Assembly (NCBI GenBank): GCA_035403625.1
Contig: DAONFN010000001.1
Span: 1 to 50,833, forward strand
Direction: 5' to 3'
DNA: 50,833 nucleotides
Source: Bacteroidales bacterium
GTDB taxonomy: Bacteria > Bacteroidota > Bacteroidia > Bacteroidales > FEN-979
Shown: positions 25 to 37,516 of the stretch, in pieces
How the letters are laid out: each line of letters starts with the position of its first letter
How positions within the stretch are numbered: position 1 is the stretch's first letter
Made by a program: the position numbers and the translations under genes
Notes under the pieces: generated by a model
Told to the model about the DNA's origin: nothing
Database searches by the model: none
What the model saw: only the letters and a program-made list of their open reading frames with translations

Positions 25-58
25 AGTGACGGGAGTGACGGAGGTGACCAGGTGACGG
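25..58. repeat. Tandem tract of 4 units (A/G)GTGAC(G/C)G, period 8-9 nt
   Basis: Read directly: agtgacgg gagtgacgg aggtgacc aggtgacgg. The 15-nt string AGTGACGGAGGTGAC (34-48) recurs identically at 14000-14014. Confidence 0.9.
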
Positions 59-62
59 TTCA

Positions 63-146
63 ATTAAAAATGAAAAATTAAAAATTACGAACTACTGCCG
101 ACTGCGGACTGCTGACTGCCGACCGGAGACTGAGTACTGGCAACTG
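63..146. repeat. 12 phase-locked heptamers (ATTAAAA-type x3, then ACTG-ending units, consensus CCGACTG)
   Basis: Read directly: attaaaa atgaaaa attaaaa attacga actactg ccgactg cggactg ctgactg ccgaccg gagactg agtactg gcaactg. This is exactly 84 nt with an unbroken 7-nt register. Confidence 0.9.
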
Positions 147-257
147 AGGCGGGGGGTACCCCGTCGGTGTGGGGTGTTAACGAGAAAAACCACGGGAACA
201 CCGAAAATCTTACGATGGCATATGAATCTTGTGTATTATTGCCGAAAAATCAACCCT

Positions 258-2171
258 ATGAGAGCAAAATCCCTTTTATTTCTCCTCCTCGGGGGAGTGA
301 TCCTCTTTTCCCTCCCGCTGGGGGGATGTAAACCCAAAAAACCCATGCAGGCACGACAGATACCCCTCGAGGATTTCTTCAAAAATCCCGACAAAGCACG
401 CTACCAGATCTCGCCCGACGGCAAATACTTCTCCTTCATGGCCCCGTATGAAAAACGGATGAACATCTTTGTGCAGGAGATCGGTTCGGAAAAAGCCACT
501 CAGCTCACCTTCGAAAAGGACCGCGACATCTCCGGCTATTTCTGGAAAAACCCCACCCGCATCGTCTTCCTGAAGGATACCGGCGGCGATGAGAACTTCC
601 GGCTGTACGGCGTGAATGTGGACGGCAGCGACCTGAAGTGCTTCACCGACTTCCCCAAGGTACGCACTGAGATCTTCGACGACCTCTACGACCTCCCCGA
701 CGAGATGATCATCGGGATGAACAAGCGCAACCCCGAAGTGTTCGATCCTTACCGCCTCAACATCGTCACGGGCGAGATGACCATGCTGGCCGAAAACCCC
801 GGCAACATTCAGGGGTGGATCCTCGACCACGCCGGCAAACTGCGCGCCGCCACCGCCATCGTCGACGGGGTGAACGCCCAGATCCTCTATCGCGAAAAGG
901 AAACCGATCCCTTCAAGCCGGTCCTCACCACCAGCTTCAAGGAAACCTGCTCGCCGCTGTTCTTCACCTTCGACAACAAGAATATCTACGCTTCGTCGAA
1001 CCTCGGCCGCGACAAAAGCGCCATCGTCGAGTTCGACATCGCCAACGGCAAGGAGGTCAAGGTACTTTACGAGAACAAGGATTTCGATGTGAACGACGTG
1101 AGCTGGTCGCATGCGAAAAAGAACCTCACCTGCGCCAACTACGAATCGGCCAAACAGGAACGCTATTTCTTCGACCAGGATGCAAAGCAGATCTACGACA
1201 AGATCCAGCAGAAACTTGGCAACTACACCTTCAACATCACCTCCATGACCCGGGCGGAGGACAAATACATGATCCGCGCCTACAGCGACCGGTCGCTGGG
1301 CAGCTATTACGTGTACGACGTGACGAAAGACGACCTGAAGAAGGTGGTCGATATCGCCCCCTGGCTGAAGGAGGAAGAGCTGTCGGAGATGCTGCCCATC
1401 GAGTACACCGCGCGCGACGGGATGAAGATCCAGGGATACCTCACCCTGCCCAACGGTTACACGATGGAGACGGCCAAAGACTTGCCGGTGGTAGTCAACC
1501 CGCACGGCGGCCCCTGGGCGCGCGACAGCTGGTACTTCAACCCCGAGATCCAGTTCCTGGCCAACCGAGGCTACGCCGTGCTGCAGATGAACTTCCGCGG
1601 ATCGACCGGTTACGGCCGCGTTTTCTGGGAAAAGTCGTTCAAGCAGTGGGGACAGACCATGCAGGATGACGTCACCGACGGCACGAAATGGCTCATCGAA
1701 AAGGGCATTGCCGATGCGAAGAAGATCGCCATTTACGGCGGAAGCTACGGCGGATACGCCACACTGCAGGGATTGGTGCGCGAGCCCGACCTCTATGCAG
1801 CCGGTGTCGATTACGTGGGCGTATCGAACCTCTTCACCTTTATGAAGACCATCCCGCCCTACTGGAAACCGATGCTCGACATGATGTACGAGATGGTGGG
1901 CAACCCGAGGGCCGACAGCGTCCAGTTCACCGCCACCTCGCCTGCACTCAACGCCGGCAAGATCAAGACCCCGTTGTTCGTGGCACAGGGCAAGAACGAC
2001 CCGCGCGTGAACATCGACGAGTCGAACCAGATCGTCGACGCCCTGAAAAAGCGGAACATCACGGTCGAATATATGGTGAAAGACAACGAAGGACACGGCT
2101 TCCACAACGAGGAGAACCGCTTCGACTTTTACCGGGCGATGGAGAAGTTCTTAGGGGAGCATCTGAAATAG
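258..2171 (+). CDS. S9-family serine peptidase (prolyl oligopeptidase / dipeptidyl aminopeptidase type), probable lipoprotein
   Basis: Nucleophile elbow GGSYGGY, downstream GKNDPRV (Asp) and EGHGFH (His), and an N-terminal beta-propeller-length region. Start moved from 174 to the ATG at 258, which gives the signal peptide MRAKSLLFLLLGGVILFSLPLGGC with a lipobox Cys. Confidence 0.88.
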   Translation: MRAKSLLFLLLGGVILFSLPLGGCKPKKPMQARQIPLEDFFKNPDKARYQISPDGKYFSFMAPYEKRMNIFVQEIGSEKATQLTFEKDRDISGYFWKNPTRIVFLKDTGGDENFRLYGVNVDGSDLKCFTDFPKVRTEIFDDLYDLPDEMIIGMNKRNPEVFDPYRLNIVTGEMTMLAENPGNIQGWILDHAGKLRAATAIVDGVNAQILYREKETDPFKPVLTTSFKETCSPLFFTFDNKNIYASSNLGRDKSAIVEFDIANGKEVKVLYENKDFDVNDVSWSHAKKNLTCANYESAKQERYFFDQDAKQIYDKIQQKLGNYTFNITSMTRAEDKYMIRAYSDRSLGSYYVYDVTKDDLKKVVDIAPWLKEEELSEMLPIEYTARDGMKIQGYLTLPNGYTMETAKDLPVVVNPHGGPWARDSWYFNPEIQFLANRGYAVLQMNFRGSTGYGRVFWEKSFKQWGQTMQDDVTDGTKWLIEKGIADAKKIAIYGGSYGGYATLQGLVREPDLYAAGVDYVGVSNLFTFMKTIPPYWKPMLDMMYEMVGNPRADSVQFTATSPALNAGKIKTPLFVAQGKNDPRVNIDESNQIVDALKKRNITVEYMVKDNEGHGFHNEENRFDFYRAMEKFLGEHLK

Positions 2172-2210
2172 TGCCCCTGGTTCCTCCAAATGGGAGAGGA
2201 GAATCGAGAA

Positions 2211-2250
2211 AAAGACCTTCCAGGTTTCCAAAATCGGGAAGGTCTTTTTT
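2211..2250. terminator. Bidirectional rho-independent terminator between convergent genes
   Basis: 11-bp perfect stem AAAGACCTTCC (2211-2221) / GGAAGGTCTTT (2237-2247), with an A-run on the 5' side and TTTTTT on the 3' side. It lies between the peptidase (+) and guanylyltransferase (-) stops. Confidence 0.8.
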
Positions 2251-2333
2251 ATTGGCTCACAATCATCAAAAATACGGCTCAAATCTCACGATGAATGAGC
2301 TTTATTTTTTTAGCGATGAGCCACAACGGAAAA

Positions 2334-3437: not shown

Positions 3438-3460
3438 AGAAGAGGAGGGTTAATTTTCTA

Positions 3461-3468
3461 CAAACATA
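3461..3468 (-). promoter_or_regulatory. Bacteroidota -7 promoter box TATGTTTG (TAnnTTTG) for manC
   Basis: The plus strand reads CAAACATA. The box lies 24 bp upstream of the ATG at 3437. Confidence 0.6.
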
Positions 3469-3473
3469 AGGAA

Positions 3474-3571
3474 AAAGATCTACGATGTACGATCTACGAT
3501 CTGGGAAGGCAGTCGGCAGTCTCCAGTCGCCAGTCGGCAGTCGGCAGTCACTTTGTTACTCTGTTACTTCC
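3474..3571. repeat. 14 phase-locked heptamers: TACGATC x3, CAGTCGG-type x6, TGTTACT-type x2
   Basis: Read directly: aaagatc tacgatg tacgatc tacgatc tgggaag gcagtcg gcagtct ccagtcg ccagtcg gcagtcg gcagtca ctttgtt actctgt tacttcc. CAGTCGG is the reverse complement of the CCGACTG unit at 98-125. Confidence 0.9.
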
Positions 3572-3572
3572 T

Positions 3573-4619: not shown

Positions 4620-4739
4620 TGCAATACCATTCCAATCAGGCGGTAAAATTACGAAAAAGAACCGTAGTGATCCGGCCCGGTCCGTTCCCAAGAAAAAATG
4701 GTTGCGGGATTAAGTTTTTGATAAAGCGATAATTACACT

Positions 4740-7352: not shown

Positions 7353-7360
7353 CAAAATTA
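7353..7360 (-). promoter_or_regulatory. -7 promoter box TAATTTTG for the T9SS cargo gene
   Basis: The plus strand reads CAAAATTA. The box lies 37 bp upstream of the ATG at 7316. Confidence 0.55.
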
Positions 7361-7394: not shown

Positions 7395-7434
7395 CTCGTC
7401 ATTCGTCACTCGTCACTCGTCATTCGTCATTCGG
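7395..7434. repeat. 5.7 tandem heptamers (C/T)TCGTCA (minus strand TGACGA(G/A))
   Basis: Read directly: ctcgtca ttcgtca ctcgtca ctcgtca ttcgtca ttcgg. The tract overlaps the last 7 codons and the stop codon of the SprT-like gene. Confidence 0.9.
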
Positions 7435-8219
7435 ATTACCGGTGCCACGGCACTTACCAGATAGACCCGGTTTGTTTGCAGGCAGAGGCAGCGGTAGCGG
7501 CTGCGCATCTTTTCTTTTTTTCGGAAGAAGCGGCGTCCGTGGAGGGTGAAAACAGCATCGAAAGGCAGCTCCTCCAGCCGCACGGTATTATCGGGCGGAT
7601 CGTATTGCTGCAGGGCCGCGGAAAGTTTATGATCGGCGGAAGAGGAGGCGCTTGGGTTTTCGATGTGTTTGTTCAGGATGCGCAGCAGGCGGTCGGGAAA
7701 GATCTCCGGAAGCAGATGCGGTTCCAGCAGGCGGCGGAAGGTGGATTTCCAGGCTTCGCCGTGGGGTTGTGGCCGGCGTTTGCGGCGGAGGGATAATTTC
7801 TTCAGCGATGCCAGGTAGTCGAGTTCAACGCGGTGGTGCGCTATTTCATGGACGAGGGTGATGAGAAAGGCGTAAGGGTTCAGCGTGCCGTTTACCGTGA
7901 TCCGGGCGGGACGGGGGCTGCTGGCAGGCCGGAAATCACCCGCTTTCGATGTGCGGTGGGGCACCACGTGCAGGCTGACCGGGAATTCAAGAAGCTGCAG
8001 AACGACCGTATCGAGGGCAGCGCCGGGTACATGGGGCCCAAGGACGGTCCGCAGTTTTTCCTCATAAGAGGGTTTGGGAACGGTGGCGGGCTTGGGAGCG
8101 GGCTTTCCGTTTCCCGGTTTCGGACCGGCCGGGGGCTCTTTCCGGGTTTGTTTTTTCGCCGGTTTTTCCCCGAATCCGGATTTGGAGGGAAGGAAGGGGA
8201 ATAAAGAGAGTTGCATCAA
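7413..8219 (-). CDS. SprT-like zinc metalloprotease-domain protein with a Pro/Lys-rich N-terminal extension
   Basis: HExxH motif in LVHEIAHH and SprT-like length after a low-complexity N-terminus (KPAKKQTRKEPPAGPKPGNGKPAPKP). The C-terminal IRMTNDE* is encoded by the heptamer tract. Confidence 0.65.
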   Translation of the reverse strand: MMQLSLFPFLPSKSGFGEKPAKKQTRKEPPAGPKPGNGKPAPKPATVPKPSYEEKLRTVLGPHVPGAALDTVVLQLLEFPVSLHVVPHRTSKAGDFRPASSPRPARITVNGTLNPYAFLITLVHEIAHHRVELDYLASLKKLSLRRKRRPQPHGEAWKSTFRRLLEPHLLPEIFPDRLLRILNKHIENPSASSSADHKLSAALQQYDPPDNTVRLEELPFDAVFTLHGRRFFRKKEKMRSRYRCLCLQTNRVYLVSAVAPVIRMTNDE

Positions 8220-11706: not shown

Positions 11707-12742
11707 CGCCGAGTTCGCTGACAACCGTTTCAGGGGTGATGCTGCGAATGCAGGTGCAATCCATGCTTTTCCGGCACTCATGACAGTTTTTTTCGATTAC
11801 CAGCGCGGTGGCGTTGCGTCCCAGGGGCGCCCAGCGGGTGGGGAAGATGGGTCGCATGGGCGCATAAAGGCCGATGGTTTTGATCCCCAGCATGGCGGCG
11901 ATGTGCAGGGGGCCGGTACTGGCCGCCACCAGCGCATCGGAAGAGGCAATCAGCGAGATCAGTTCAGTGAGGGTAAGTTTTCCGGTCAAGTCTTCGACTC
12001 TTCCCCGGTGCTTTTCCAGGAATCCGGTTATCAGCGCCCCTTCCTCTTTTGTCCCGGTGATGACGATCCGGTATCTTTCTGCCGGAAGGAGTTCAATCAG
12101 CCGCGAAAAATTACCGAGCCCCCACTCGCGGGCGCTGCCCTTCGATTTGGGGTGGAGGATGACGGTTACCTCAACCCCCGGCCCCTTCTCCTTCAGGAGA
12201 AGGGGAGGCACCCCTCTCCCAGGGGAGAGGGGTTGGGGGTGAGGCATAAGCCCCACGACCTCATCCAGCGTATATTTCCGCCGGATCCCCAGCCCTTTCA
12301 GCAGTTCCAGGTTGAGTTGAGCCTCGTGCAGATTCGAATTCTTCCGCGGGATGTGCAGCAGGCGGTTGCAGGTCAGCCAGGTGAAAAAGCGCCCGGCGGT
12401 GGCGATGCGCAGCGGGATTTTCGCCCTCATCGCCGTCCGGCAGACCGCTCTGTCGGGGAAGACATGGACGATGGTGTCGGCACGGAGCTTTTGCAGGAAC
12501 AATACTCTCTGCGTCTCTGCGTCTCTGCGATCATTTGAAATCAGCGGATCACCCAATGAGGTGCGGGGTTCCCAGCAAACGATCTCATCCACCCCGGGGC
12601 ACAATTCCACTACCGGGCGGGTGTATTCGCGGCAAAGAAAAATAACGGTACAGCCGGGAATTGCCTGTTTCAGCACGGCAACCATCGGCAGCGTCAGAAC
12701 GACGTCACCGATACTGTCGGTCCGGCTGAGGATGATGCGCAT
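11696..12742 (-). CDS. Glycosyltransferase family 9 (heptosyltransferase-like, LPS core type)
   Basis: N-terminus [20 protein letters not shown] and C-terminal domain ...HPKSKGSAREW...GPLHIAAMLG... are typical of GT9. The gene contains two in-frame repeat elements (listed as separate features). Confidence 0.8.
   Translation of the reverse strand: MRIILSRTDSIGDVVLTLPMVAVLKQAIPGCTVIFLCREYTRPVVELCPGVDEIVCWEPRTSLGDPLISNDRRDAETQRVLFLQKLRADTIVHVFPDRAVCRTAMRAKIPLRIATAGRFFTWLTCNRLLHIPRKNSNLHEAQLNLELLKGLGIRRKYTLDEVVGLMPHPQPLSPGRGVPPLLLKEKGPGVEVTVILHPKSKGSAREWGLGNFSRLIELLPAERYRIVITGTKEEGALITGFLEKHRGRVEDLTGKLTLTELISLIASSDALVAASTGPLHIAAMLGIKTIGLYAPMRPIFPTRWAPLGRNATALVIEKNCHECRKSMDCTCIRSITPETVVSELGAIS
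12182..12232. repeat. Two adjacent perfect 10-bp palindromes inside the GT9 CDS
   Basis: CCCCTTCTCC-ttca-GGAGAAGGGG (12182-12205) and CCCCTCTCCC-ag-GGGAGAGGGG (12211-12232). Together they encode the interdomain linker ...PQPLSPGRGVPPLLLKEKGP... Confidence 0.9.
12506..12529. repeat. 3 perfect tandem octamers TCTCTGCG inside the GT9 CDS
   Basis: Read directly: tctctgcg x3 (24 nt, in frame). They encode RRDAETQR on the minus strand. Confidence 0.95.
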
Positions 12743-13956: not shown

Positions 13957-13964
13957 CAAAAGTA
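13957..13964 (-). promoter_or_regulatory. -7 promoter box TACTTTTG for pgk
   Basis: The plus strand reads CAAAAGTA, 25 bp upstream of the ATG at 13932. It is part of a 31-nt module repeated in inverted orientation at 15584-15614. Confidence 0.65.
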
Positions 13965-13972
13965 CGGTTTTT

Positions 13973-14033
13973 TGGTGACGAGGTGACGAAGGTGATGGAA
14001 GTGACGGAGGTGACAGGGTAACAAAGCAACAGG
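13973..14033. repeat. Tandem GTGACG-type units (period 8-10) followed by GTAACA/GCAACA units
   Basis: Read directly: tggtgacg aggtgacga aggtgatgga agtgacgg aggtgacagg gtaacaaa gcaacagg. It shares 15 identical nt with the tract at 25-58. Confidence 0.85.
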
Positions 14034-14199: not shown

Positions 14200-14207
14200 T
14201 AGTTTTG
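14200..14207 (+). promoter_or_regulatory. -7 promoter box TAGTTTTG for the AAA ATPase gene
   Basis: Full TAnnTTTG match 18 bp upstream of the ATG at 14225. This placement favours 14225 over the ORF-track start at 14210. Confidence 0.5.
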
Positions 14208-14224
14208 AGATGTATCTTTGCAGC

Positions 14225-15379
14225 ATGATCCATCGCCTTGCAGAACATACGGTCAGGGACCTGCTCGGGGGCTTTCCCTGTGTTGCCCTCATCGGACCCC
14301 GTCAGGTAGGGAAAACTACGCTGGCCAAAAAGATCAGGGAGTTTTACCCCCAGAGTATTTATCTCGATCTTGAGATGAGAAGTGATTTTATTCGGTTGGA
14401 GGATCCCGAAACATATCTTGGCCAATTTATTGACCGGTTGATCATCATTGACGAAGTACAGCGAAAAAGAGAACTGTTTCCTGTGTTACGGGCAATGATT
14501 GACAGGCACCGGGTGCCGGGCAGGTTTCTGTTGCTGGGATCGGCGGCCCCCGAACTACTACGAAACAGTTCCGAGACCCTGGCCGGCAGGATCGCCTATT
14601 GTCCGCTGACTCCGTTGCAGATCAAGGAAGTCGTACCACGTTACCCGGTTACGGACTTATGGTTCTACGGAGGATTTCCGGATCCCTTCCTGAACCGGAA
14701 ATACTGGTTACCCTGGATGAATAATTTCATCAGAACCTATGTGGAAAGGGACCTTCCCAACCTGGGATTCCCGGCCGACCGGCGAACCGGCGAGAGGATC
14801 TGGATGATGCTGGCCCATTACCACGGCGGAATAGTTAATTATGCCGAAATCGGTAAAAGCCTCGATCTGAGCCAGCCGACCGTGAAAAAGTACATTGGAT
14901 TCCTGGAAAGCACCTTCCTGGTCCGGCTTATCAAACCTTTTCATTCCAATGCCGGAAAAAGACTGGTAAAATCGCCTAAGGTCTATCTGACCGATTCCGG
15001 GATATTCCACTTTTTCCTTGGAATCGAGACCCTTGACCAACTGTATGGTCATCCTAAAATCGGGGTCTCCTGGGAGGGGTTTGCCATCGAGCAGATCATT
15101 TCAGCCTTACCGGTCAACTGCCGGTATTACTTTTACCGAACACACGATGGGGCGGAACTCGATCTGGTGATCACCCGGGGTGACAAACCGGTGGCCGGCA
15201 TTGAGATCAAATTCGGGTCGGATTTCCGCGTCTCGCGGGGGAACACCGAAGCGGTACGAACGCTGGCTGTCACAAACAAATTCATCGTTATCAGGGATGA
15301 TGAGGACTACCTGTTATCCGATGGGTTCAGGGTTATCGGCCTTGCCGGATTTATTTCGAAGCACCTTCCAACAATTTGA
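14225..15379 (+). CDS. AAA-family ATPase with a DUF4143-like C-terminal region
   Basis: Walker A GPRQVGKTT and Walker B-like LIIIDEVQ. The length and the C-terminal ...KVYLTDSG... pattern are typical of the widespread ATP-binding (AAA plus DUF4143) family. Confidence 0.75.
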   Translation: MIHRLAEHTVRDLLGGFPCVALIGPRQVGKTTLAKKIREFYPQSIYLDLEMRSDFIRLEDPETYLGQFIDRLIIIDEVQRKRELFPVLRAMIDRHRVPGRFLLLGSAAPELLRNSSETLAGRIAYCPLTPLQIKEVVPRYPVTDLWFYGGFPDPFLNRKYWLPWMNNFIRTYVERDLPNLGFPADRRTGERIWMMLAHYHGGIVNYAEIGKSLDLSQPTVKKYIGFLESTFLVRLIKPFHSNAGKRLVKSPKVYLTDSGIFHFFLGIETLDQLYGHPKIGVSWEGFAIEQIISALPVNCRYYFYRTHDGAELDLVITRGDKPVAGIEIKFGSDFRVSRGNTEAVRTLAVTNKFIVIRDDEDYLLSDGFRVIGLAGFISKHLPTI

Positions 15380-15401
15380 TATTCAACAAACAGGGCTTAG
15401 A

Positions 15402-15600
15402 GGTGGTGGTGGAATAGTCGCAAGTCGCAAGTCACAAGTCGCAAGTTTCCGCCTGCGGCGGGCATTTGTATAATGATCTGCAAGAAGGATTATTAAAACC
15501 ATAAACCATATTCCCGAAGGGAAAACTTAAAACTTGAGACTTGAGACTTAAAACTGTCCGTTACTGGTTGAGACCCTGACCCTGTCACCTCTTCACCAAA
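15402..15600. repeat. Composite spacer made almost entirely of short tandem-repeat blocks
   Basis: GGT x3.7 (15402-15412); AGTCGCA x4 (15416-15443); AAACCAT x2 (15496-15509); hairpin TTCCC-gaa-GGGAA (15511-15523); (A/G)ACTT(A/G)A x4 (15524-15551); then a 7-nt register continuing through ACCCTGA CCCTGTC ACCTCTT to 15600. Confidence 0.85.
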
Positions 15601-15606
15601 AAATCG

Positions 15607-15614
15607 TACTTTTA
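15607..15614 (+). promoter_or_regulatory. Near-consensus -7 box TACTTTTA for the nitrilase-family gene
   Basis: One mismatch to TAnnTTTG, 25 bp upstream of the ATG at 15639. It is embedded in the 31-nt module shared (28/31) with the pgk promoter. Confidence 0.45.
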
Positions 15615-15638
15615 CCCGGGAAAAACCAACCCGATGTC

Positions 15639-21201: not shown

Positions 21202-21244
21202 TATAAACCGAGGGGATTTTACGTTGCCTGGCAAAACCTTGTTT

Positions 21245-22918: not shown

Positions 22919-22954
22919 ATGTAAATCAGCAAATTAAGATTTGCTTGTTTACAT
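22919..22954. promoter_or_regulatory. AT-rich 16-4-16 imperfect palindrome immediately after the regulator 1 stop
   Basis: ATGTAAATCAGCAAAT-taag-ATTTGCTTGTTTACAT, with 14 of 16 arm positions complementary and no T-run after it. It could be an operator or a weak terminator. Confidence 0.4.
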
Positions 22955-23094
22955 AATGTCACGCGGATTTCTTTCCCGGTCCTTCCTTTCTTGTTTCCGC
23001 TGAAATAAATTTTCGGGTTGTTGCTTTTTTGTAACACCCTGTTTCTTTGAACGGGCCCCGGGTGACTCTAAATTTACCGAAATTCTTGACCGGC

Positions 23095-23304
23095 ATGAGC
23101 TCTGAGGAAATCGTCTTTGATGAAGAAGGCACTGAAAACAGGACCGAACTGGAAAAACTTCTGCTGCAAAAACAGCAGGAAACGGAAGCCCTGAAACGGC
23201 TCATCGACATCCTCGGGAAACCCGACCGGCCGGAGAGTGAACCTCCCCGGAAGACGGAACAAAATAAAAATCAACTATCTACAGACAATCAAACCAGTAT
23301 CTAA
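23095..23304 (+). CDS. Possible 69-aa coiled-coil small protein (hypothetical)
   Basis: MSSEEIVFDEEGTENRTELEKLLLQKQQETEALKRLIDILGKPDRPESEPP... lies on the same strand between regulator 1 and its cargo gene. There is no homology support. Confidence 0.3.
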   Translation: MSSEEIVFDEEGTENRTELEKLLLQKQQETEALKRLIDILGKPDRPESEPPRKTEQNKNQLSTDNQTSI

Positions 23305-23320
23305 CCAAAAACATGCGAGT

Positions 23321-26300
23321 ATGAAAAAGTGGGTACTATTTTTATTTTTCGGATTGTTCCTCGCCGGGCAAAGCCATGCCCAGCTGACCGGGACAAAGAG
23401 TATTCCGGGTGACTATGCGACCCTGGCGGCGGCCATTACCGACCTGAATGCCAACGGTGTAGGTATCGGCGGGGTCACCTTTATCGTGGCCGACGGGTAC
23501 ACGGAAACCTTTGCAACACCCTCTGCCGGACTGATCAGCACTTCGTCGAGCAACAGTTCCCGGCCGGTTCTTTTTACCCGTTCGGGGGAAGGTACCGCCC
23601 CGGTGATCACAGCGGCCATTGGCAATGGAAGCGCCGATTATATTTTCTGCCTTTCGGGTACGAGCAGCATTACGTTCGACGGGATCGCCATCCGGGAAAA
23701 TCCTTCAAACTCCATCCCCGAACAACAGGTGGAATGGGGCTTTGCCATTCTCAAAGCATCGGCAACCCAGGGTTCACAGGATGTGGTGATTAAAAATTGC
23801 TCCATCACGCTTGACAAGACGAACCCCGGATCGACCGGGATTTACATGGACAATGTTACCATCGCGGATCCTGCCATCCAGCTGACCATCACGGATTTAT
23901 CCGGGACCAATTCCGGTAATAAGTTTTACAACAATGTTTTAGACAACGTTAACCGGGGTATTTATCTTTCCGGCTATGCCGACCCGAATGCTCCTTATTC
24001 TTATTATGATCAGAACAACGACATCGGATCGCTGGGCGGCAACCATGTTACGAACTTTGGAACCGGCAGCCAGGCCGTTTACGGGATCTATGCCGCTTAC
24101 CAGAACGGACTGACCATCGCAAATTCGACCATCAACGGGGGAGACGGGAGCACCGGGCCCGTGTATGGGATTTACGGCGGCACAGCCAATAATGCCAGCG
24201 TGAATATTTACGGCAACACCATCACTGTGACCAGTGCCGGTACCACGGCAGGTCTCTATGGCATCTACAACGCAGGCCTTGGAAACGGAGGGACCTCCAA
24301 CACCCTGAATTTCTACAGCAACTCCCTGGTTAACTGTACATATCCTACCGCGACGGCCGCCATCTTTTACGGGATCTATAACGTAGCCACAGCCGGCACG
24401 ATCAACCTGTACTCGAACACGGCCCGGTACAACACCACGGGCGGCACCACCCAGCAGTACCTGATCTACACCAATTCGACGGCCGGAAATTCGGTCAACG
24501 TCTATAATAACCAGGTCTCCGACAATCAATGCACGGGAACCGGGTCGCAAACCGACCGGAGCTATATATTCGGCATCCAGACCATCGGTTGGGGAAACAT
24601 TACCATCCACGACAACCTGATATACAATCTCACCCTGCCCGCGCAGAATAAATTCGGCGCTGGTATTTACGGGATCCATGGAGGATTTTCCGCGTCCAAC
24701 AGCGCTATTTACAATAACCTGATCCACGATCTTTCGGTTGCCGGCTCGATGACTTCAAGCACCAGCACGGTCATTTACGGGATCTATTCATCCCTTAACA
24801 GTTTTACCAACGTGGGGACGAACAGCATCCGTGGAAATACCATATATAATTTGCAAATGACGTTGTCTTCCACTTATGGCGGATATATGTATGGCATCTA
24901 TTGCCAATATTATAACAACCTCTATTCGAACAATGTCTCAAACCTTGGTTTTACCAACACCTCCAACGGTTACGGGTACGGTGCAGGCATCTACTACAGC
25001 AGCAACGGGATTGGCTATATTCACGAAAACAGCATCAACAACTGCTCGATGGGGGGAACCTCGGCCTATTTCTACGGCTTGCAGATCAATGGCGGAGATA
25101 ACGTGTATGCATACAACAACATGATCGCCGACCTCAACGCCCCCACCTCCACCGTAGCCCACGCACTCAGCGGCATCTATGTCGTGAACCCGGTACAGGC
25201 AGGCATCTACAACAACAGCATCTACCTGAATGCCACCAGCAACTCCACGGGCAATTTCGGAACGAACGGGATTTATATTACCACCTCCGCCCTGGTCGAC
25301 CTGCGGAACAACCTCATCATCAACACCTCCTCAGCCCCGTCGAGCACCACGTACAAGACCGTTGCTTACCGGCGAAGCTCGGCCACTTTCAGTACCTATG
25401 CCACCACCTCTAATTACAACGATTTTTTTGCGGGTACGCCGTCGGCTACCAACCTGATTTTTTATGACGGTACCACCGGCATCCAGACCCTGTCCGATTT
25501 CAAAGTGTTTGCGGTTCAGCGGGATGCGAATTCCATTTCGGAACTCCCACCCTTTTCGAATATCACCACCCAGCCCTGGGACCTCCACATTAAATCCTTT
25601 GTGCCCAACCAATGCGAGAGTGGCGGATCGGTCATATCGGGTATCGTGAACATTACCACCGATTTTGACGGTATGCCCCGGTATCCGAACCCCGGCTACC
25701 CGGAAAGGACCGGTTATCCGCCCACAGCGCCTGATATGGGAGCACACGAATTCGGCGGAATCCCGCTCGACCTGACGCCTCCCAGCATTCTTTTCACGCC
25801 GCTTGGAAAAACCTCTTCCACCCGGGCACGGTCGCTGAATGTTACCGTACAGGATGCCAGCGGGGTCCCCACCGGCGGGTCCGGCGTTCCCGTACTTTAC
25901 TGGAAAAGGTCAGCGGCGGGTTCATGGAATGCCGCGCCGGCCGATGCCGTTAACGGGAACATTTACACGTTTACTTTCGGCGACGGAGTCGTTCTCAATG
26001 ATACCGTTTACTATTATATTGTTGCACAGGATAACGTCACTCCGGCACCCAATGTAGGAGCAACCCCTTCAAATGTATCCGGTTATTCGGCCGATCCCCC
26101 GGCCTGCAGCGTTCCTCCGCCCGATGCTTCCTGTTATTCCTATAAAATCGTCGGGAGTTTATGCGGAACGTTTCAGGTTGGAACAGGACAAACGTACCCC
26201 ACCCTCACCTCCGCCCTGAATGCCCTGAACCAGATGGAAGTGACCTGCCCGGTGATTTTCGAGCTGACCGACGCAACGTACCCGTCGGAGACCTTCCCGC

Positions 26301-28432
26301 TGACCATTACCAATCCCACCGGAGTCAATGCCGTCAATACCGTTACGATCAGACCCGCAACCGGGATCTCGACCACTTTTTCAGGTGTCGCAACGTCCAT
26401 TCTCAAGCTGGTGCAGGCCAGTTACATCACCATCGACGGATCCAATTGCGGGGGAAGCGATCGTAGCCTGACCTTCAATAACCTCAGCACCTCAGGCACC
26501 ACCGCCACCATCTGGATATGCAGCAACGGTACGGGACAGGGCTCAACCAATGATGTGATTAAAAATTGCAACATCAACAACGGGTATGGAACCACGACTT
26601 CCTACGATATCGTCATCGGAAGCGTAACAGGAATCGGTACTGCCGGTGATGACAACGACCACATCACCCTCCTGAATAATTCCATTTTTAAAGCCTACCG
26701 CGGGATCTATGTGGCGGCTTCCGCCAACGGAGTTGACGACGACCTGAAGATTGTGAACAACACCATCGGAGCGGATATTGCGGGCAACAGCATTTCCAAT
26801 TACGGGATCTATCTTGCCGGGACCGCCTCACCTGAAGTTACGGGCAATGTGATCTACAACATGATCAACAACAATGCCGCCTTGATTTGCGGGATCGAGC
26901 TCAACAGCAATGTCAGCGATGCGATCATCCGGAACAACATGATCCACGACCTGAAGAGTTCATACGCCTATGGTCCGTCGGTTTACGGCATCAACATCGG
27001 TACCGGAAGCAATGTTAAAAATGCCACCCTGATCAACAACGTGATCTATAACCTCACAAGCACGCAGTACGCCGCGGCATCCACTCAGTACAACCCCTTC
27101 GGCGTGCGCATCGTAAGCGGAACCGGGCATAAGATGTACCACAACACCATCAACATGGCAGGCACCCAATCGGCGCCGGGAAGCTCGGCCTCCCTGTCTG
27201 CCGCACTGGTATTTCCCTATCCTATTGTTACAGGTCTTGACATCCGGGATAATATCTTTGCCAACAGTATTGTGGGTCTTGCCGGATCTTCCTCCTACTG
27301 CGTGTATGCCGTGGCCGGATCCACCTTCGGAACCCTCGACTACAACGATTACTATCCTTCCGGGACCTATGGCATACTCGGGTATTTCGGCTCCGCCCAG
27401 ACATCTCTTCCGGCATGGCAGGCTGCTACCGGGCATGAGGGACATGGCAGAAACATCGACCCGGTCTTTACCTCAGCCTCCAACCTGATACCCACCAACC
27501 CCGCGCTGGGACACCTGGGGATATGGCTCCCGGCAGTCCCTTCGGATTATGCAGGCGTGATCCGTGCCAATCCTCCCGATATCGGCGCGTATGAATTTGC
27601 GTCCAACCCGGTCGTCAACACCGACATGGCTTCGGATATTGCTGCGACGACCGCAACCCTCAACGGTTCCATCAATGCAGCGAATCACACGGTTGACAGC
27701 TATTTTGATTATGGAACGACCACCGCTTACGGCAGTACGGTTGCCGGAACCCCGGCGACCGTCACCGGAAGTTCGGCGACTCCGGTTGCGGCGGCCCTGA
27801 CCGGTCTCCAGCCCTTCACCACCTATCATTTCAGGGCAAAGGGAGTCGACGGGGCATTGACTGTATACGGTGAAGACCGGTCCTTTACGACCAGTTCCAA
27901 CATTCCCGTGACGATCGGGGCTTCAGGCACAATATCGAACGATACCTGTATCGATGCCACCCAGACCATCACAGTGGCAGGTACTCCCGATACCTTTACC
28001 GTGACTTCCAGCGGGTATGTGACCCTGATTGCCGGCCAGAATATCGTTCTTTTACCGGGAACAACGGTCGAGCCGGGGGGCTACCTGTGGGCCTACATCA
28101 CGACTACCAACGAGTATTGCGGATCGCCGGCCATCAAGAGTACGGAAGTGTCGCACGATATGCCGTTAATCATGCGTAATAATGAGCATTCACATTTCAG
28201 TCTTTACCCGAATCCGGCCGGCGGCAACATCACCCTGATGCAGGTAAGCGACCTCCTCTTTGACCATGTAAACATTGAAGTTTACACCCTGCAGGGAGAA
28301 AGGGTATTCACCGATGCCATGATCGGGGAGAAGAGGCACGACCTCAATCTTTCGGGCATGGCGAGCGGGCTCTATTTCGTCAAACTGATCGCAGACGGGA
28401 AGGTGGAGACGCTGAAACTGGTCAGATTATAG
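23321..28432 (+). CDS. Giant T9SS-secreted right-handed parallel beta-helix repeat protein (1703 aa)
   Basis: Signal peptide MKKWVLFLFFGLFLAGQSHAQ (start 23321). Two blocks of PbH1-like rungs (…NNLIHDL, GNTIYNL, NNMIADL, NNSIYLN, GNVIYNM, NNMIHDL, NNVIYNL…), an Fn3-like module, and the CTD FSLYPNPAGGNITL...GLYFVKLIADGKVETLKLVRL. Confidence 0.85.
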   Translation: MKKWVLFLFFGLFLAGQSHAQLTGTKSIPGDYATLAAAITDLNANGVGIGGVTFIVADGYTETFATPSAGLISTSSSNSSRPVLFTRSGEGTAPVITAAIGNGSADYIFCLSGTSSITFDGIAIRENPSNSIPEQQVEWGFAILKASATQGSQDVVIKNCSITLDKTNPGSTGIYMDNVTIADPAIQLTITDLSGTNSGNKFYNNVLDNVNRGIYLSGYADPNAPYSYYDQNNDIGSLGGNHVTNFGTGSQAVYGIYAAYQNGLTIANSTINGGDGSTGPVYGIYGGTANNASVNIYGNTITVTSAGTTAGLYGIYNAGLGNGGTSNTLNFYSNSLVNCTYPTATAAIFYGIYNVATAGTINLYSNTARYNTTGGTTQQYLIYTNSTAGNSVNVYNNQVSDNQCTGTGSQTDRSYIFGIQTIGWGNITIHDNLIYNLTLPAQNKFGAGIYGIHGGFSASNSAIYNNLIHDLSVAGSMTSSTSTVIYGIYSSLNSFTNVGTNSIRGNTIYNLQMTLSSTYGGYMYGIYCQYYNNLYSNNVSNLGFTNTSNGYGYGAGIYYSSNGIGYIHENSINNCSMGGTSAYFYGLQINGGDNVYAYNNMIADLNAPTSTVAHALSGIYVVNPVQAGIYNNSIYLNATSNSTGNFGTNGIYITTSALVDLRNNLIINTSSAPSSTTYKTVAYRRSSATFSTYATTSNYNDFFAGTPSATNLIFYDGTTGIQTLSDFKVFAVQRDANSISELPPFSNITTQPWDLHIKSFVPNQCESGGSVISGIVNITTDFDGMPRYPNPGYPERTGYPPTAPDMGAHEFGGIPLDLTPPSILFTPLGKTSSTRARSLNVTVQDASGVPTGGSGVPVLYWKRSAAGSWNAAPADAVNGNIYTFTFGDGVVLNDTVYYYIVAQDNVTPAPNVGATPSNVSGYSADPPACSVPPPDASCYSYKIVGSLCGTFQVGTGQTYPTLTSALNALNQMEVTCPVIFELTDATYPSETFPLTITNPTGVNAVNTVTIRPATGISTTFSGVATSILKLVQASYITIDGSNCGGSDRSLTFNNLSTSGTTATIWICSNGTGQGSTNDVIKNCNINNGYGTTTSYDIVIGSVTGIGTAGDDNDHITLLNNSIFKAYRGIYVAASANGVDDDLKIVNNTIGADIAGNSISNYGIYLAGTASPEVTGNVIYNMINNNAALICGIELNSNVSDAIIRNNMIHDLKSSYAYGPSVYGINIGTGSNVKNATLINNVIYNLTSTQYAAASTQYNPFGVRIVSGTGHKMYHNTINMAGTQSAPGSSASLSAALVFPYPIVTGLDIRDNIFANSIVGLAGSSSYCVYAVAGSTFGTLDYNDYYPSGTYGILGYFGSAQTSLPAWQAATGHEGHGRNIDPVFTSASNLIPTNPALGHLGIWLPAVPSDYAGVIRANPPDIGAYEFASNPVVNTDMASDIAATTATLNGSINAANHTVDSYFDYGTTTAYGSTVAGTPATVTGSSATPVAAALTGLQPFTTYHFRAKGVDGALTVYGEDRSFTTSSNIPVTIGASGTISNDTCIDATQTITVAGTPDTFTVTSSGYVTLIAGQNIVLLPGTTVEPGGYLWAYITTTNEYCGSPAIKSTEVSHDMPLIMRNNEHSHFSLYPNPAGGNITLMQVSDLLFDHVNIEVYTLQGERVFTDAMIGEKRHDLNLSGMASGLYFVKLIADGKVETLKLVRL

Positions 28433-28490: not shown

Positions 28491-29221
28491 CTGTCCAGGC
28501 CCTTCACCCTCGGCTTCCCTGCCACAAAATCTTTCAGGTAGAAGGGCTCGAAATAGGCCAGGTCTTCAAAAAGAGTGCCGTTGAAACGATCTTCCGCGAA
28601 ACGGCCCAGGTAACGGGCCGAGGCATGAAATCCCTCCCGGAAAACCGCGTTCGGGTGGCCGCCAAGTGTCTCGAGGCATTTGGCGGCTCCTTCGCCGGCG
28701 AAAACCACCTTGCCGGCGGCGAGGAATTCCGAAAAGGAATCCGCATCGATGATCTCGGCGCGGACTTCCCGGACCTCCTGCAGATTCGTATCATACAGGG
28801 CACAATACACCTCCATCCGGCGGGCGTCGATCATGGGACAATAGAGGGTGAATGGTGTGGGATGAGGGATGTGGGGTGAGGGATCGAATGCCGGTTTTTC
28901 TTCATCCTTCATGCCAGCCGCCATGGCCTGCAGGGTGGAGACGGCGATCAGCGGCTTTCCCAGGGCGTAGCACAGACCCTTGGCGGCAGCCACCCCGATG
29001 CGCAGACCGGTGTATGAACCGGGGCCTTTGCTGACGGCAACGGCATCGAGATGCTCAAACGGCACCCCGGCTTCCTGCATCAGTTCCTGCATGAAAACAG
29101 TTAAAAGGGAAGAATGAACATTCTTCCCTTTCGACTCCCGGAGGGCCAGCAGCGTCCCGTTGCGGAACAGGGCGGCCGAGCAGGCTTCCGTGGCGGTTTC
29201 AATACACAGGATCAGCGCCAT
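28487..29221 (-). CDS. tsaB: tRNA threonylcarbamoyladenosine (t6A) biosynthesis protein TsaB
   Basis: LCIETATEACSAAL, SKGPGSYTGLRIG and PMIDARRMEVY are typical of TsaB/YeaZ. The gene carries an in-frame heptamer tract. Confidence 0.88.
   Translation of the reverse strand: MALILCIETATEACSAALFRNGTLLALRESKGKNVHSSLLTVFMQELMQEAGVPFEHLDAVAVSKGPGSYTGLRIGVAAAKGLCYALGKPLIAVSTLQAMAAGMKDEEKPAFDPSPHIPHPTPFTLYCPMIDARRMEVYCALYDTNLQEVREVRAEIIDADSFSEFLAAGKVVFAGEGAAKCLETLGGHPNAVFREGFHASARYLGRFAEDRFNGTLFEDLAYFEPFYLKDFVAGKPRVKGLDR
28857..28884. repeat. 4 tandem heptamers G(T/A)GGG(A/G)T inside the tsaB CDS
   Basis: Read directly: gtgggat gagggat gtggggt gagggat. They encode PSPHIPHPTP in a loop just before the conserved PMIDARR motif. 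Confidence 0.85.
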
Positions 29222-32207: not shown

Positions 32208-32217
32208 CACTGATTAT

Positions 32218-33389: not shown

Positions 33390-33392
33390 GAA

Positions 33393-33420
33393 GTGAAGAG
33401 TGAAGGGTGAAGAGTGAAGA
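33393..33420. repeat. 4 tandem heptamers GTGAAG(A/G)
   Basis: Read directly: gtgaaga gtgaagg gtgaaga gtgaaga, starting 4 nt after the atpB stop. AGTGAAA recurs at 33435 and 33449 (14 nt apart). Confidence 0.9.
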
Positions 33421-33463
33421 GTTTTGTAATTAGTAGTGAAAAAATAAGAGTGAAAAATCAATA

Positions 33464-33487
33464 ATCAGCACATCAGCACATCAGCAC
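33464..33487. repeat. 3 perfect tandem octamers ATCAGCAC
   Basis: Read directly. This is the exact reverse complement of the 3 perfect GTGCTGAT units at 37485-37508. Confidence 0.95.
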
Positions 33488-33509
33488 ATTAATATCCGTT
33501 TCACCTTAA

Positions 33510-33782
<273 letters not shown>

Positions 33783-33796
33783 CATCGGCAGGCGGA

Positions 33797-33830
33797 CCGG
33801 GACGGGCCAACGGTTGGTTGGCCTTCCCGG
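33797..33830 (+). promoter_or_regulatory. Stem-loop after atpE (possible mRNA stabiliser or partial terminator)
   Basis: CCGGGA(33797-33802)/TCCCGG(33825-33830) plus GGCCAAC(33805-33811)/GTTGGCC(33817-33823), with a 5-nt loop and no U-tract. Confidence 0.4.
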
Positions 33831-33860
33831 GCCGATTTATCCATTGAAAAACAACGGACT

Positions 33861-34355: not shown

Positions 34356-34359
34356 GCGG

Positions 34360-34920: not shown

Positions 34921-34956
34921 TCAATCCAATTTTATCATATTGCTATTCAGATAATT

Positions 34957-36546
<1,590 letters not shown>

Positions 36547-36555
36547 CGAACGCCC

Positions 36556-37467
36556 ATGCCCGGACTCAAGGAAGTACGCACCCGGATTGCCTCGGTTAAA
36601 TCGACCCAACAGATCACCAATGCCATGAAAATGGTGGCGGCGTCGAAACTTCGCAGGGCGCAATCGGCCATCCTGAAGCTTCGGCCGTATGCCGGCAAAC
36701 TGCGCGAAATCCTGCAGAACCTCAGCGCCAGCATCGACCAGACGGAGGGAAACATCTATTCGGCCGACCGCAAACCGGTGAAGATCCTGATGGTGGTGAT
36801 CGCCTCGAACCGCGGACTCTGCGGGGCTTTCAACTCCAACATCGTGAAAATGGCGACGGGTCGTATCGCCAACGAATATCGGGAACAGCATGCAGCCGGG
36901 AACGTCGCCCTCCTCACCATCGGCCGGAAGGCCACCGAATATTTCCGGAAAAGGAAATTCAACGTGGCGGAATCGCACGACGAACTCTTCGACCGGCTAA
37001 CCTTTGCCCATGTTTCCGAACTGGCGGAAAAGCTGATGAAAGGGTTTGCCAACCAGGAATATGACCGCATTGAGCTGATCTACAACCAGTTCAAGAATGC
37101 GGCGGTACAGCGGCTCATTGTCGAGCAGTACCTGCCGATCGCTCCGCAGGAGAACAGTCCGGAGTCGGCAGCCGGCAGTCGGCAGTCGGGTGAAATAAAA
37201 CAGGAGACGGATTATATCTTCGAGCCAGACAAGGAAACGATCGTGCGCGAACTGATCCCGAAAACCCTTCGCATCCAGCTTTTCAAGGCAGTGCTCGATT
37301 CCTTTGCCTCGGAACAGGGGGCGCGGATGACCGCCATGCAAAAAGCCACCGAAAATGCCAAGGACCTGCTGCGCGACCTGAACATTTCCTACAACAAAGC
37401 ACGCCAGAATGCCATCACCAACGCCATCCTCGAAATCGTTTCGGGGGCCGAGGCGCTGAAAGGGTGA
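36556..37467 (+). CDS. atpG: F0F1 ATP synthase subunit gamma
   Basis: N-terminus LKEVRTRIASVKSTQQITNAMKMVAASKLRRAQ and C-terminus ARQNAITNAILEIVSGAEALKG. The gene contains an in-frame CAGTCGG tract. Confidence 0.95.
   Translation: MPGLKEVRTRIASVKSTQQITNAMKMVAASKLRRAQSAILKLRPYAGKLREILQNLSASIDQTEGNIYSADRKPVKILMVVIASNRGLCGAFNSNIVKMATGRIANEYREQHAAGNVALLTIGRKATEYFRKRKFNVAESHDELFDRLTFAHVSELAEKLMKGFANQEYDRIELIYNQFKNAAVQRLIVEQYLPIAPQENSPESAAGSRQSGEIKQETDYIFEPDKETIVRELIPKTLRIQLFKAVLDSFASEQGARMTAMQKATENAKDLLRDLNISYNKARQNAITNAILEIVSGAEALKG
37155..37189. repeat. 5 tandem heptamers (C/G)AG(T/C)C(C/G)G inside the atpG CDS
   Basis: Read directly: cagtccg gagtcgg cagccgg cagtcgg cagtcgg, encoding NSPESAAGSRQSG. 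The 14-mer GGCAGTCGGCAGTC is identical to the intergenic tract at 3509-3550. Confidence 0.9.
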
Positions 37468-37476
37468 TGAGATGAT

Positions 37477-37516
37477 GTGCTAATGTGCTGATGTGCTGAT
37501 GTGCTGATGCGCTGAT
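37477..37516. repeat. 5 tandem octamers GTGCT(G/A)AT (3 perfect)
   Basis: Read directly: gtgctaat gtgctgat gtgctgat gtgctgat gcgctgat, starting 10 nt after the atpG stop. It is inverted relative to the tract at 33464-33487. Confidence 0.95.

Follow-up and report, generated by a model that had tools for sequence, protein, structure and literature searches.

Tandem tracts of 7–8-nt units in the intergenic spacers of a Prolixibacteraceae-like Bacteroidales genome

Introduction

Heptameric short tandemly repeated repetitive (STRR) sequences occur in the cyanobacteria Calothrix, Nostoc and Anabaena, where they can form hairpins between the genes of operons and where their function is unknown (PMC2670836). 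Here we describe tracts of comparable build in a stretch of 50,833 nucleotides from a Bacteroidales genome (contig DAONFN010000001.1 of assembly GCA_035403625.1), which was analyzed over its whole length and is referred to below as the window. Tandem units of 7 or 8 nt, and some of 8–9 nt, pad seven of its intergenic spacers, as detected with Tandem Repeats Finder (TRF) and with a scan for self-matches at fixed distances (lag-k scan). With the cyanobacterial sequences these tracts share the intergenic location, the tandem 7-bp units and the occurrence of several unit families per genome (PMC2670836, PMC4692102). They differ in phylum and in unit sequence; moreover, 8-nt units (and some of 9 nt) are here nearly as common as those of 7 nt and, unlike in the cyanobacterial case, the unit vocabulary varies between related genomes. 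The intergenic tandem heptamers that characterize STRR are thus present, period 7 being the commonest and period 8 following closely. The canonical STRR units are CCCCAGT, TTGGTCA and CAACAGT; since the host is a member of the Bacteroidales and other units were recovered from it, the tracts are STRR-like rather than members of the STRR family.

A broader frame is given by long simple sequence repeats (LSSR) with units of 5–11 nt. According to PMC4679880 and PMC4692102, the survey of Mrazek et al. (2007) showed such simple sequence repeats (SSR) to be abundant in sporadic lineages, with heptamers most frequent, and its authors suggested that the polymerase slips over a contact of 7 nt. As far as the class is described in these two sources, the tracts share with it what appears, at the loci compared, to be a lineage-specific excess, the predominance of heptamers and the exclusion from coding DNA of units that are not multiples of three, and there is no difference in kind, the window's lineage lying outside the 2007 survey. 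A preliminary description of the window, made from the sequence alone, had named STRR as the closest analogue; the choice is apt, but the class is broader and has already been catalogued, as 5–11-nt LSSRs, in many phyla.

The heptamers GGGAATC of Xanthomonas and GGGGAYT of Nostoc are approximately 90% intergenic and lie mostly between co-directional genes, nearer to the end of the upstream open reading frame, or ORF (28 nt vs. 160 nt); inverted pairs are frequent among them, and close species keep the locations but differ in repeat length and sequence (Rehm et al. 2015, PMC4692102). The intergenic bias, the proximity to the upstream ORF, the location in co-directional spacers, the inverted pairs and the variation at fixed sites are all found here as well. 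On the other hand, one G-rich, quadruplex-prone unit dominates each of those genomes, whereas many units are present here, with a mean tract G+C content of 37% and no G-run motif. MacGregor (2015) described TAACTGA direct repeats in Beggiatoaceae, cyanobacteria and five Bacteroidetes; the spacers of Gramella, Aequorivita and Elizabethkingia are assemblages of several heptamer repeats, and contigs often end in repeats (PMC4679880). These are intergenic heptamer arrays like those of the window, but the TAACTGA arrays consist of a single favored unit, usually just upstream of start codons and in one orientation, whereas the tracts described here abut stop codons, show no orientation preference and do not count TAACTGA among the units recovered. 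The supposition that nothing equivalent had been described for Bacteroidota thus has to be narrowed, heptamer assemblages being known in five Bacteroidetes (PMC4679880); it stands for the window's lineage, as full-text literature searches returned nothing on such repeats in Prolixibacteraceae and no further paper on heptamer repeats of Bacteroidetes. Finally, contingency SSRs of host-adapted pathogens are likewise tandem short units near promoters or within genes whose copy number is changed by slippage. Their units are mostly of 1–5 nt and they belong to surface and virulence genes, varying between and within strains, whereas here units of 7–9 nt accompany housekeeping genes and no strain-level variation was seen.

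Periodicity and register

The lag-k scan of the window gave six strong self-match segments at lag 7, three at lag 8 and three at lag 14, and none at lags 4–6, 9–13 and 15; 30 dinucleotide-preserving shuffles of the window were entirely devoid of strong segments. Over whole spacers, identity at lag 7 or 8 reaches 0.45–0.89, compared with approximately 0.2–0.35 at other lags. The head-to-tail arrangement of 5–11-nt units over lengths exceeding chance that defines LSSRs is therefore observed, with nine segments at lag 7 or 8 against none in the shuffles. Within tracts the register is kept: it runs unbroken across 12 units of 7 nt at 62–146, neighboring units matching at 4–6 of 7 bases, and persists across a single weak junction at 3477–3553. 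The preliminary description had reported phase-locked tracts whose 7-nt register is retained as the unit changes from one block to the next, and had suggested comparison with shuffled sequence as a check. The tracts are real, with TRF arrays at each of the spacers it named; the change of unit by block is accurately described, as can be seen at 62–146; and the enrichment of 7-nt periodicity over shuffled sequence is found in the window. A search of the window against Rfam at gathering thresholds gave no match, and a tRNA/tmRNA scan of it found none.

Short repeats can confuse short-read assembly, and a run of N indeed lies inside a (TAAATCG)n tract of one relative (L044:12637–12746; relatives and their loci are given by number), the orthologous tract of L046 being intact. 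That the tracts might be artefacts of assembly had been raised at the outset, and sequencing artefacts were considered as well. Seven independent assemblies of the same population, deposited at ENA, NCBI and JGI and obtained from different samples with different assemblers (L081–L087), are 99.8–99.98% identical to the window, the divergent end of L081 excepted. Every tract that they cover is present in them, and no tract contains an indel in any of these consensus assemblies, in which minority length variants could be hidden. As the shuffles are empty and the seven other assemblies carry identical tracts, the tracts are neither chance nor assembly artefact; 7/8(/9)-nt tracts also occur in dozens of unrelated metagenome-assembled genomes (MAGs), and the probability of an artefact is practically nil. 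Strain-level length polymorphism was rejected on the same grounds, and the variation of copy number among close strains or within populations that characterizes contingency loci was not found in the consensus assemblies L081–L087.

Distribution among relatives

AtpG of the window is 81% identical to AtpG of an uncultured Prolixibacteraceae MAG, and the next 50-odd matches come from Bacteroidales, Draconibacterium or Prolixibacteraceae MAGs; the source of the window is a Prolixibacteraceae-like Bacteroidales MAG. We compared 80 atpG loci from species-representative genomes, 57 of them closer (AtpG at least 63% identical) and 23 distant (other Bacteroidales, Albibacterium). In the closer loci, strong segments number 35 at lag 7 and 22 each at lags 8 and 9, with nearly nothing at other lags; the distant loci contain almost none. 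A second, independent set of loci, the pgk regions from metagenomes, gave the same picture: 237 kb from closer relatives contain 15 segments at lag 7, seven at lag 8 and none at all other lags, and their density is 0.09 per kb, compared with 0.02 per kb in 463 kb from distant ones. Tracts of period 7/8 are approximately 5–7 times rarer in distant Bacteroidota than in the closer relatives. What appears to be an excess at the level of the lineage is thus seen in 50 kb of the window genome and, at two loci of relatives, in a total of about 0.9 Mb. Two contigs with Prolixibacteraceae-like atp operons bear other names, 'Alphaproteobacteria bacterium' (L026, SACF01000001.1, AtpG 73% identical to that of the window) and 'Syntrophothermus sp.' (L037, JBLNAN010000121.1, 69%); both are probably mis-binned or mislabelled MAG contigs.

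In the closer atpG group, TRF combined with a simple gene caller recovered 148 tracts, on which the statistics on relatives given below are based. Non-coding DNA holds 120 of the 148 (approximately 81%); for scale, spacers account for only 6.4% of the window (about 3.2 kb with the gene calls described below), of which the tracts occupy, by our own count, about 0.5 kb. Among the non-coding tracts around atpG, period 7 is represented by 60, period 8 by 37 and period 9 by 17. The period spectrum of coding tracts is flatter, periods 6 and 9 being relatively commoner than among the non-coding ones, in agreement with the depletion in coding DNA of units that are not multiples of three, a property of LSSRs.

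Position, polarity and folding

Tracts are present in 26% of co-directional spacers (72/273), 21% of convergent ones (4/19) and 13% of divergent ones. In co-directional spacers (n = 68) the first tract begins at a median of 4.5 nt past the upstream stop codon, 69% starting within 15 nt, and the last one ends at a median of 37 nt ahead of the next start codon, which is an underestimate because the gene caller picks the longest ORF. Spacers with a tract have a median length of 108 nt and those without one of 77 nt; a difference of about 30 nt would be expected if the tract were added DNA. In the window, correctly oriented TAnnTTTG boxes at 3461, 7353, 13957 and 37564 lie 9–47 nt past tract ends. 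The proximity to such boxes, which had first been remarked upon, is therefore real, but the location is better described as an anchoring to the upstream stop codon. The resulting picture is that each tract fills the stretch from a stop codon to the following core promoter.

This arrangement could suggest that the tracts are cis-regulatory, phase-variable elements, the copy number near the core promoter (over the −33 region or immediately upstream of it) tuning or switching the downstream gene, as happens in contingency loci. Apart from the spacing to the boxes, the tracts of the NTP-transferase gene and of pgk sit at the place expected for the −33 element, and copy number does vary between species (see below). 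However, the anchor is the stop codon and not the promoter, convergent spacers are affected to a similar extent as co-directional ones, and a protein linker is affected too; the flanking genes (atp operon, pgk, ferritin) are housekeeping genes and not genes of surface variation; and the seven consensus assemblies of the same population show no tract indel, with the reservation on minority variants made above. We thus consider a cis-regulatory role very unlikely. Strand skew relative to transcription is not significant (G/C 39 vs. 35, A/T 48 vs. 34), and a strand-specific role at the RNA level, for example of the rut type, was rejected. Nothing was found to indicate either a regulatory or a strand-specific role.

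Local RNA structure was rejected as a general property of the tracts, since the fold z-scores of 60 tract-bearing and 189 tract-free spacers do not differ (Mann-Whitney P = 0.14). Folding of the spacers 33390–33521, 3438–3572 and 1–257 gave no clear structure. One region of the window does fold: at 15380–15638 the (AAGTCGC)n array matches the (GAGACTT)n array imperfectly in inverted orientation, and the two form a long imperfect hairpin (−75.6 kcal/mol, z = −3.3, equaled by 0/200 shuffles). Two spacers that contain no tandem tract gave low z-scores as well. The first, between atpE and atpF (33783–33860), has z = −4.8 in the window and −6 to −9.7 in relatives (L004–L055); this predicted structure resembles a conserved hairpin past the c-subunit gene and might act as an mRNA stabilizer or as an attenuator that sets subunit stoichiometry. 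The second (2172–2333) separates the convergent genes for the S9 peptidase and the NTP-transferase; it folds far better than its shuffles (z = −5.0) and is probably a bidirectional terminator.

Turnover and local seeds

Orthologous spacers carry unrelated units with periods of 7–10 nt. This is most directly seen after the atpG stop codon, where the array is built from TGATGTGC in the window, GGTAGCGA in L001, TGGCGAA in L037, GGTAAAAC in L010 (where a copy in inverted orientation follows downstream), five copies of TTGCCATTTA in L052 and six of CATCATTGCA in L057, and is absent in some other relatives. Between species with 87–94% nucleotide identity, orthologous tracts differ in copy number (17 vs. 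7 units on one arm in L004 and L005), in unit (L044 vs. L046, L040 vs. L048) or in presence.

In L032, the post-atpG unit GAGGGTAA duplicates the final bases of the gene itself, aagggtaa. Similarly, tract H of the window (Table 1), located upstream of pgk, appears from its sequence to have expanded from a GTCACCTC seed, an unexpanded copy of which is found upstream of the CN-hydrolase gene at 15579–15600. The pgk-upstream spacer of the relatives contains a different, conserved promoter and no tract, and the upstream neighbor is different as well. The arrangement of the window is therefore derived, and comparison of the sequences indicates that the pgk/DUF4143 junction has been rearranged in its lineage.

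Protein and DNA alignments place tract O, which lies within atpG, at a linker of variable length and sequence across all AtpG homologues, most of which are devoid of the approximately 7–8 residues concerned. The same spot is occupied by CAGTCGC/CAGTCAA heptamers in L001 and by CCGGACAA octamers in L057; evidently the same process acts wherever additional sequence is tolerated. Related units had been reported in frame inside four conserved genes: the atpG tract is such an in-frame insertion, while the other short period-7/8 coding runs, at 12506–12529, 20712–20728 and 28859–28884, are known from TRF only.

Shared units, inverted pairs and S23p cassettes

Units recur among distant tracts of the window in both orientations, as had been noticed from the outset, with exact matches at 34/14000, 98/3510/37176 and 33464/37481. 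CCGACTG or its complement CAGTCGG is found at 98, 3510, 3531, 3538, 37176 and 37183, and there are three CAGTCGG-type tracts in all. Tracts A and H form the direct-repeat family D18 (26–56 vs. 13992–14022, 84%), which includes the exact 15-mer AGTGACGGAGGTGAC at 34 and 14000. Three pairs are inverted. Members of the first, 81–146 and 3510–3554 (I4, I5 and I8), face two convergent genes and so have the same polarity relative to their own gene. The second, 13958–13987 and 15584–15613 (I6; 30 nt, 93%), consists of two promoter-module copies that flank the DUF4143/AAA_14 gene (14210–15379). In the third (I7), three copies of ATCAGCAC at 33464–33491 are complementary at 28/28 positions to 37481–37508, approximately 4 kb away, on the two sides of atpE–atpG. 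As a side observation, the I6 repeat includes a module resembling a −7 box (CCAAAAAAnCGTACTTTT). In the relatives, 100 of the 148 tracts have no partner by 11-mer match. Sharing of units across genomes exceeds statistically what a null of matched composition gives (for 7-mers 33 vs. 8.9 pairs, for 8-mers 21 vs. 0.5), but the evidence for a cross-genome unit lexicon is weak, being dominated by AAATCGT/AATTACG, by AATGCAG and by cassette orthologues with differing offsets.

These cassettes deserve separate mention. In 13 atpG loci of relatives, a gene for a four-helix-bundle protein of about 117 residues (TIGR02436/PF05635, S23p family) adjoins an Rv0495c-like gene. S23p is the protein family of the intervening sequences (IVS) of 23S rRNA, and the Coxiella IVS comprises an S23p ORF, a 28-bp RNase III stem and variable heptamer repeats (PMC4990558). 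The cassettes of the relatives (Table 1) share with the 23S IVS of Leptospira and Coxiella (PMC4990558) the four-helix-bundle ORF bracketed by inverted repeats, and differ from them in lying outside rRNA and in having tandem arrays as arms. On both sides lie inverted arrays built from a single unit, which is AATGCAGG/CCTGCATT in one set of genomes and AATGCAAAC/GTTTGCATT in another, so that both arms shift unit and period (8 vs. 9 nt) together. The ORF lies on either strand depending on the genome, and truncated ORFs still have their arms (L001, L056). Further S23p genes are located next to nuoA, in the interval from an Fe-ADH gene to an MFS gene and in one Chloroflexota MAG, all with inverted tandem-array flanks whose units are lineage-specific; many homologues are on contigs shorter than 2 kb. 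No S23p genes were found in the pgk loci, where they were sought as an independent sample. In the window, the search for an S23p gene, a relic of it or a cassette leader gave only chance-level matches, and no IVS-like cassette is present in it. That S23p genes are enclosed by co-evolving inverted arrays is perhaps the more original observation; it leaves our reading of the window unchanged.

On the basis of these cassettes one may ask whether the tracts mark the ends, or are the footprints, of small mobile cassettes such as those of the S23p type, with tandem arrays as terminal inverted repeats, that would carry a limited vocabulary around genomes and from one genome to another. Inverted tandem arrays bound S23p genes at several independent sites, including that of the Chloroflexota MAG, an AATGCAG-type unit is found at different sites in different genomes, arms outlast decayed ORFs, and the 30-nt inverted repeat I6 flanks the DUF4143 gene of the window. 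Against this stand the lack of a detectable S23p gene, relic or leader in the window, whose units differ from those of the cassettes, the solitary state of most tracts, the demonstrably local origin of some seeds and the fact that no transposase or target-site duplication was seen; such an origin is quite unlikely.

Alternatively, inverted pairs of the same unit could be the functional entity, either as RNA (stems around cistrons that are processed by RNase III or have a stabilizing effect, as with the 23S IVS) or as DNA (inversion or recombination), solitary tracts being decayed partners. Precedents exist in the inverted heptamer pairs of Xanthomonas (PMC4692102), the STRR hairpins (PMC2670836) and the 28-bp stem of the Coxiella IVS (PMC4990558). 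The three inverted pairs of the window, the excess of inverted over direct partners, the hairpin at 15380–15638 and the complementarity that S23p-flanking arrays retain despite change of period and flips of the ORF are in favor of such a function. The large share of partnerless tracts and the ordinary folding of tract spacers are not, and the partners 81–146 and 3510–3554 cannot pair within one RNA because they belong to two convergent transcription units. Conserved long-range pairing across the atp operon was likewise rejected, as only three among about 55 genomes show the complementarity, namely the window, L057 and, to a weak degree, L030. For the cassette arms, pairing specific to RNA (G-U) was also rejected: the comparison of sense and antisense duplex energies is inconsistent (4 vs. 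6), without preference for either, so that nothing favors RNA over DNA. A function of the inverted pairs is thus unlikely as a general explanation of the tracts.

Origin of the tracts

The reading that we prefer, with a probability of roughly 0.6, is that the tracts are long-unit SSRs of the STRR or 5–11-nt LSSR type, which arose in situ in unconstrained DNA, through slippage or tandem duplication and with some copying from one array to another. The period specificity, the same spectrum at two loci, the non-coding bias, the insertion in the AtpG linker, the local seeds, the turnover, the lack of skew and of excess RNA structure, the anchoring to stop codons, the greater length of tract-bearing spacers and the similar habits of the Xanthomonas and Nostoc heptamers all support it. 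While the existence of the tracts, their period specificity, distribution among the lineage, position, lack of strand bias and turnover follow from the data, slippage, escape from repair and neutrality are inferences. A local 7–9-nt seed would first be duplicated in tandem or multiplied by slippage during replication, and the resulting tract would grow through cycles of point mutation and subsequent re-amplification, so that the unit changes by block while the register persists. Accumulation would be limited to DNA that tolerates extra sequence, namely the junction between stop codon and core promoter or, if the net insertion is in frame, a disordered protein linker. MutS-type mismatch repair in Escherichia coli handles loops of approximately 4 nt or less well; loops of 7–9 nt may be too large for its efficient action, and slips could persist. 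The tracts remain stable in co-occurring strains and turn over between species. As to the shared units, we infer that they result from copying of spacer modules and from ectopic conversion or template switching among arrays.

Several points weigh against this reading. Within-locus sharing of units is far above that of composition-matched random units (5 vs. 0.29 expected for 7-mers, 6 vs. 0.06 for 8-mers), and independent slippage predicts neither this sharing nor the 28/28 pair. By 11-mer match, 48 tracts have inverted partners and 26 direct ones, although many of the inverted pairs represent one orthologous cassette. A lost tract is often replaced in situ by a tract with a different unit, which could mean selection for having one. 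The slippage reading also gives no reason for the proneness of this lineage or for units of 7–8 nt, and neutrality is judged from about 50 kb of this genome. Taken as a whole, the earlier interpretation of the window was largely right, with the novelty of the tracts and their link to promoters overstated.

Gene content and neighboring features of the window

Gene calls and Pfam labels were taken from public contigs carrying the same population and completed by our own scans. The window begins with genes for an S9 peptidase (+), an NTP-transferase (−), a beta-lactamase-family protein (−), an 858-residue protein with a type IX secretion system (T9SS) tail (−) and a hypothetical protein (−). They are followed by mlaE with its ABC ATPase gene, cvpA and a methyltransferase gene (+), by GT9 and pgk (−), by genes for the DUF4143 ATPase, CN-hydrolase, GT2, Wzy and DAGK (+) and by ispG (−). 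Next come genes for a TPR protein and a 1703-residue T9SS protein (+), then a tsaB-like gene and genes for an RND adaptor and OEP (−), atpBEFHAG and ferritin (+), two small genes (−) and, at the end, genes for a TPR protein and proteins of 2067 and 897 residues (+). The positions of the tracts, and of the S23p cassettes in relatives, are listed in Table 1. At 14200–14228, a perfect TATCTTTG box (14213–14220) overlaps with the start codon called for the DUF4143 gene (ATG 14210); the true start may be the ATG near 14225, giving a very short leader.

Table 1. Tandem-repeat features of the window and S23p cassettes of relatives (positions in nt)
Feature	Position	TRF arrays (period)	Units	Context
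Tract A	26–58	26–58 (8–9)	GTGAC-core units of 8–9 nt (GTGACGG / AGGTGACC)	Direct copy of part of tract H
Tracts B + C	62–146	62–87, 94–123 (7/8)	AATTAAA, then AATTACG, AACTACT and GCCGACT-type	Upstream of S9 peptidase gene (+)
Tracts D/E/F	3477–3568	3477–3502, 3508–3549, 3550–3568 (7/8)	(GATCTAC)4, (CAGTCGG-type)6, (TYTGTTAC)2	Spacer from beta-lactamase-family stop (3573, −) to TATGTTTG box (3461–3468) of NTP-transferase gene
Tract G	7396–7433	7396–7433 (7/8)	(TCGTCAY)5	Covers final codons and stop of hypothetical gene 7413–8216 (−); 36 nt from TAATTTTG box (7353–7360) of gene for 858-aa T9SS-tailed protein
Tract H	13974–14033	13974–14014 (8–9)	GGTGACGA-type units of 8–9 nt	10 nt upstream (minus-strand sense) of pgk TACTTTTG box
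Composite spacer	15402–15600	15416–15446, 15496–15510, 15522–15555 (7/8)	GGT run; (AGTCGCA)4 at 15416–15446; (AAACCAT)2 at 15496–15510; (AAAACTT/GAGACTT)5 at 15522–15555; GTCACCTCTTCACC promoter-module copy at 15579–15600	DUF4143 ATPase to CN-hydrolase
Tract M	33392–33422	33392–33422 (7/8)	(AGTGAAG)4	Starts 2 nt past atpB stop
Tract N	33464–33491	33464–33489 (7/8)	(ATCAGCAC)3.3	Upstream of atpE; perfect inverted partner of tract P
Tract O	37155–37189 (+)	37155–37189 (coding)	CAGTCGG-type heptamers	Within atpG; part of length-variable linker (…NSPESAAGSRQSG…)
Tract P	37465–37517	37465–37517 (7/8)	(TGATGTGC)6.6	Begins on atpG stop; 47 nt short of ferritin-gene TACCTTTG box (37564–37571)
S23p cassette, L055	8080–8690			
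S23p cassette, L005	7567–8187			
S23p cassette, L004	11069–11771			
S23p cassette, L013	8214–8907			
S23p cassette, L020	8543–9064			
S23p cassette, L176	1890–2520			
S23p cassette, L178	1880–2400			
S23p cassette, L181	1930–2410			

The spacers of the regions 21–28 kb and 39–50 kb had been reported to lack tracts, and TRF agrees: 0/6 of these spacers contain one, compared with 7/14 elsewhere (hypergeometric P ~0.04 for this post hoc count). The two modules concerned (21224–28432 and 39344–50334) each consist of a gene for a TPR protein followed by genes for giant secreted proteins. A Por_Secre_tail (T9SS) protein is encoded in one of them, and Sortilin/VPS10-type repeats, including a 42-nt repeat family at 42077–43519, are found in the other. 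A different origin, which the preliminary description had entertained for them, finds no support for the 39–50 kb module in the form of a recent arrival, as its TPR and giant genes are syntenic in L001 (70% and 53% amino-acid identity, respectively). This second module was found in synteny only in L001 among the 80 relatives.

Significance

Cyanobacteria are among the heptamer-rich lineages that carry S23p genes. It is conceivable, if quite improbable, that the arrays are more than plain debris of slippage and arise by active copying linked to small cassettes, the cassettes or an enzyme acting with them seeding and homogenizing the arrays. In favor of this are the S23p (Avd-like) genes that inverted tandem arrays enclose in Bacteroidales and in at least one Chloroflexota MAG, with arms that change unit and period in concert and a gene that flips orientation. 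If this were true, cassette-linked copying would explain the genome-specific unit vocabularies together with the inverted pairs of the window, and could unite heptamer-rich lineages with S23p genes, Xanthomonas and the Coxiella IVS included (PMC4990558, PMC4692102).

The tracts have practical effects: they break short-read assemblies, as in L044, lengthen spacers and insert residues in proteins, as in the linker of AtpG, and they could be of use in telling species or strains apart. With them, Prolixibacteraceae-like Bacteroidales, which are known mostly from MAGs, join the few bacteria whose spacers are built largely from 7–9-nt tandem repeats. Moreover, the related genomes directly display the steps of tract evolution, from local seeding and in-register growth to copy-number drift and replacement, which makes this lineage a good natural system for the question posed in 2007 of why heptamers dominate the long SSRs of bacteria and whether these are neutral.

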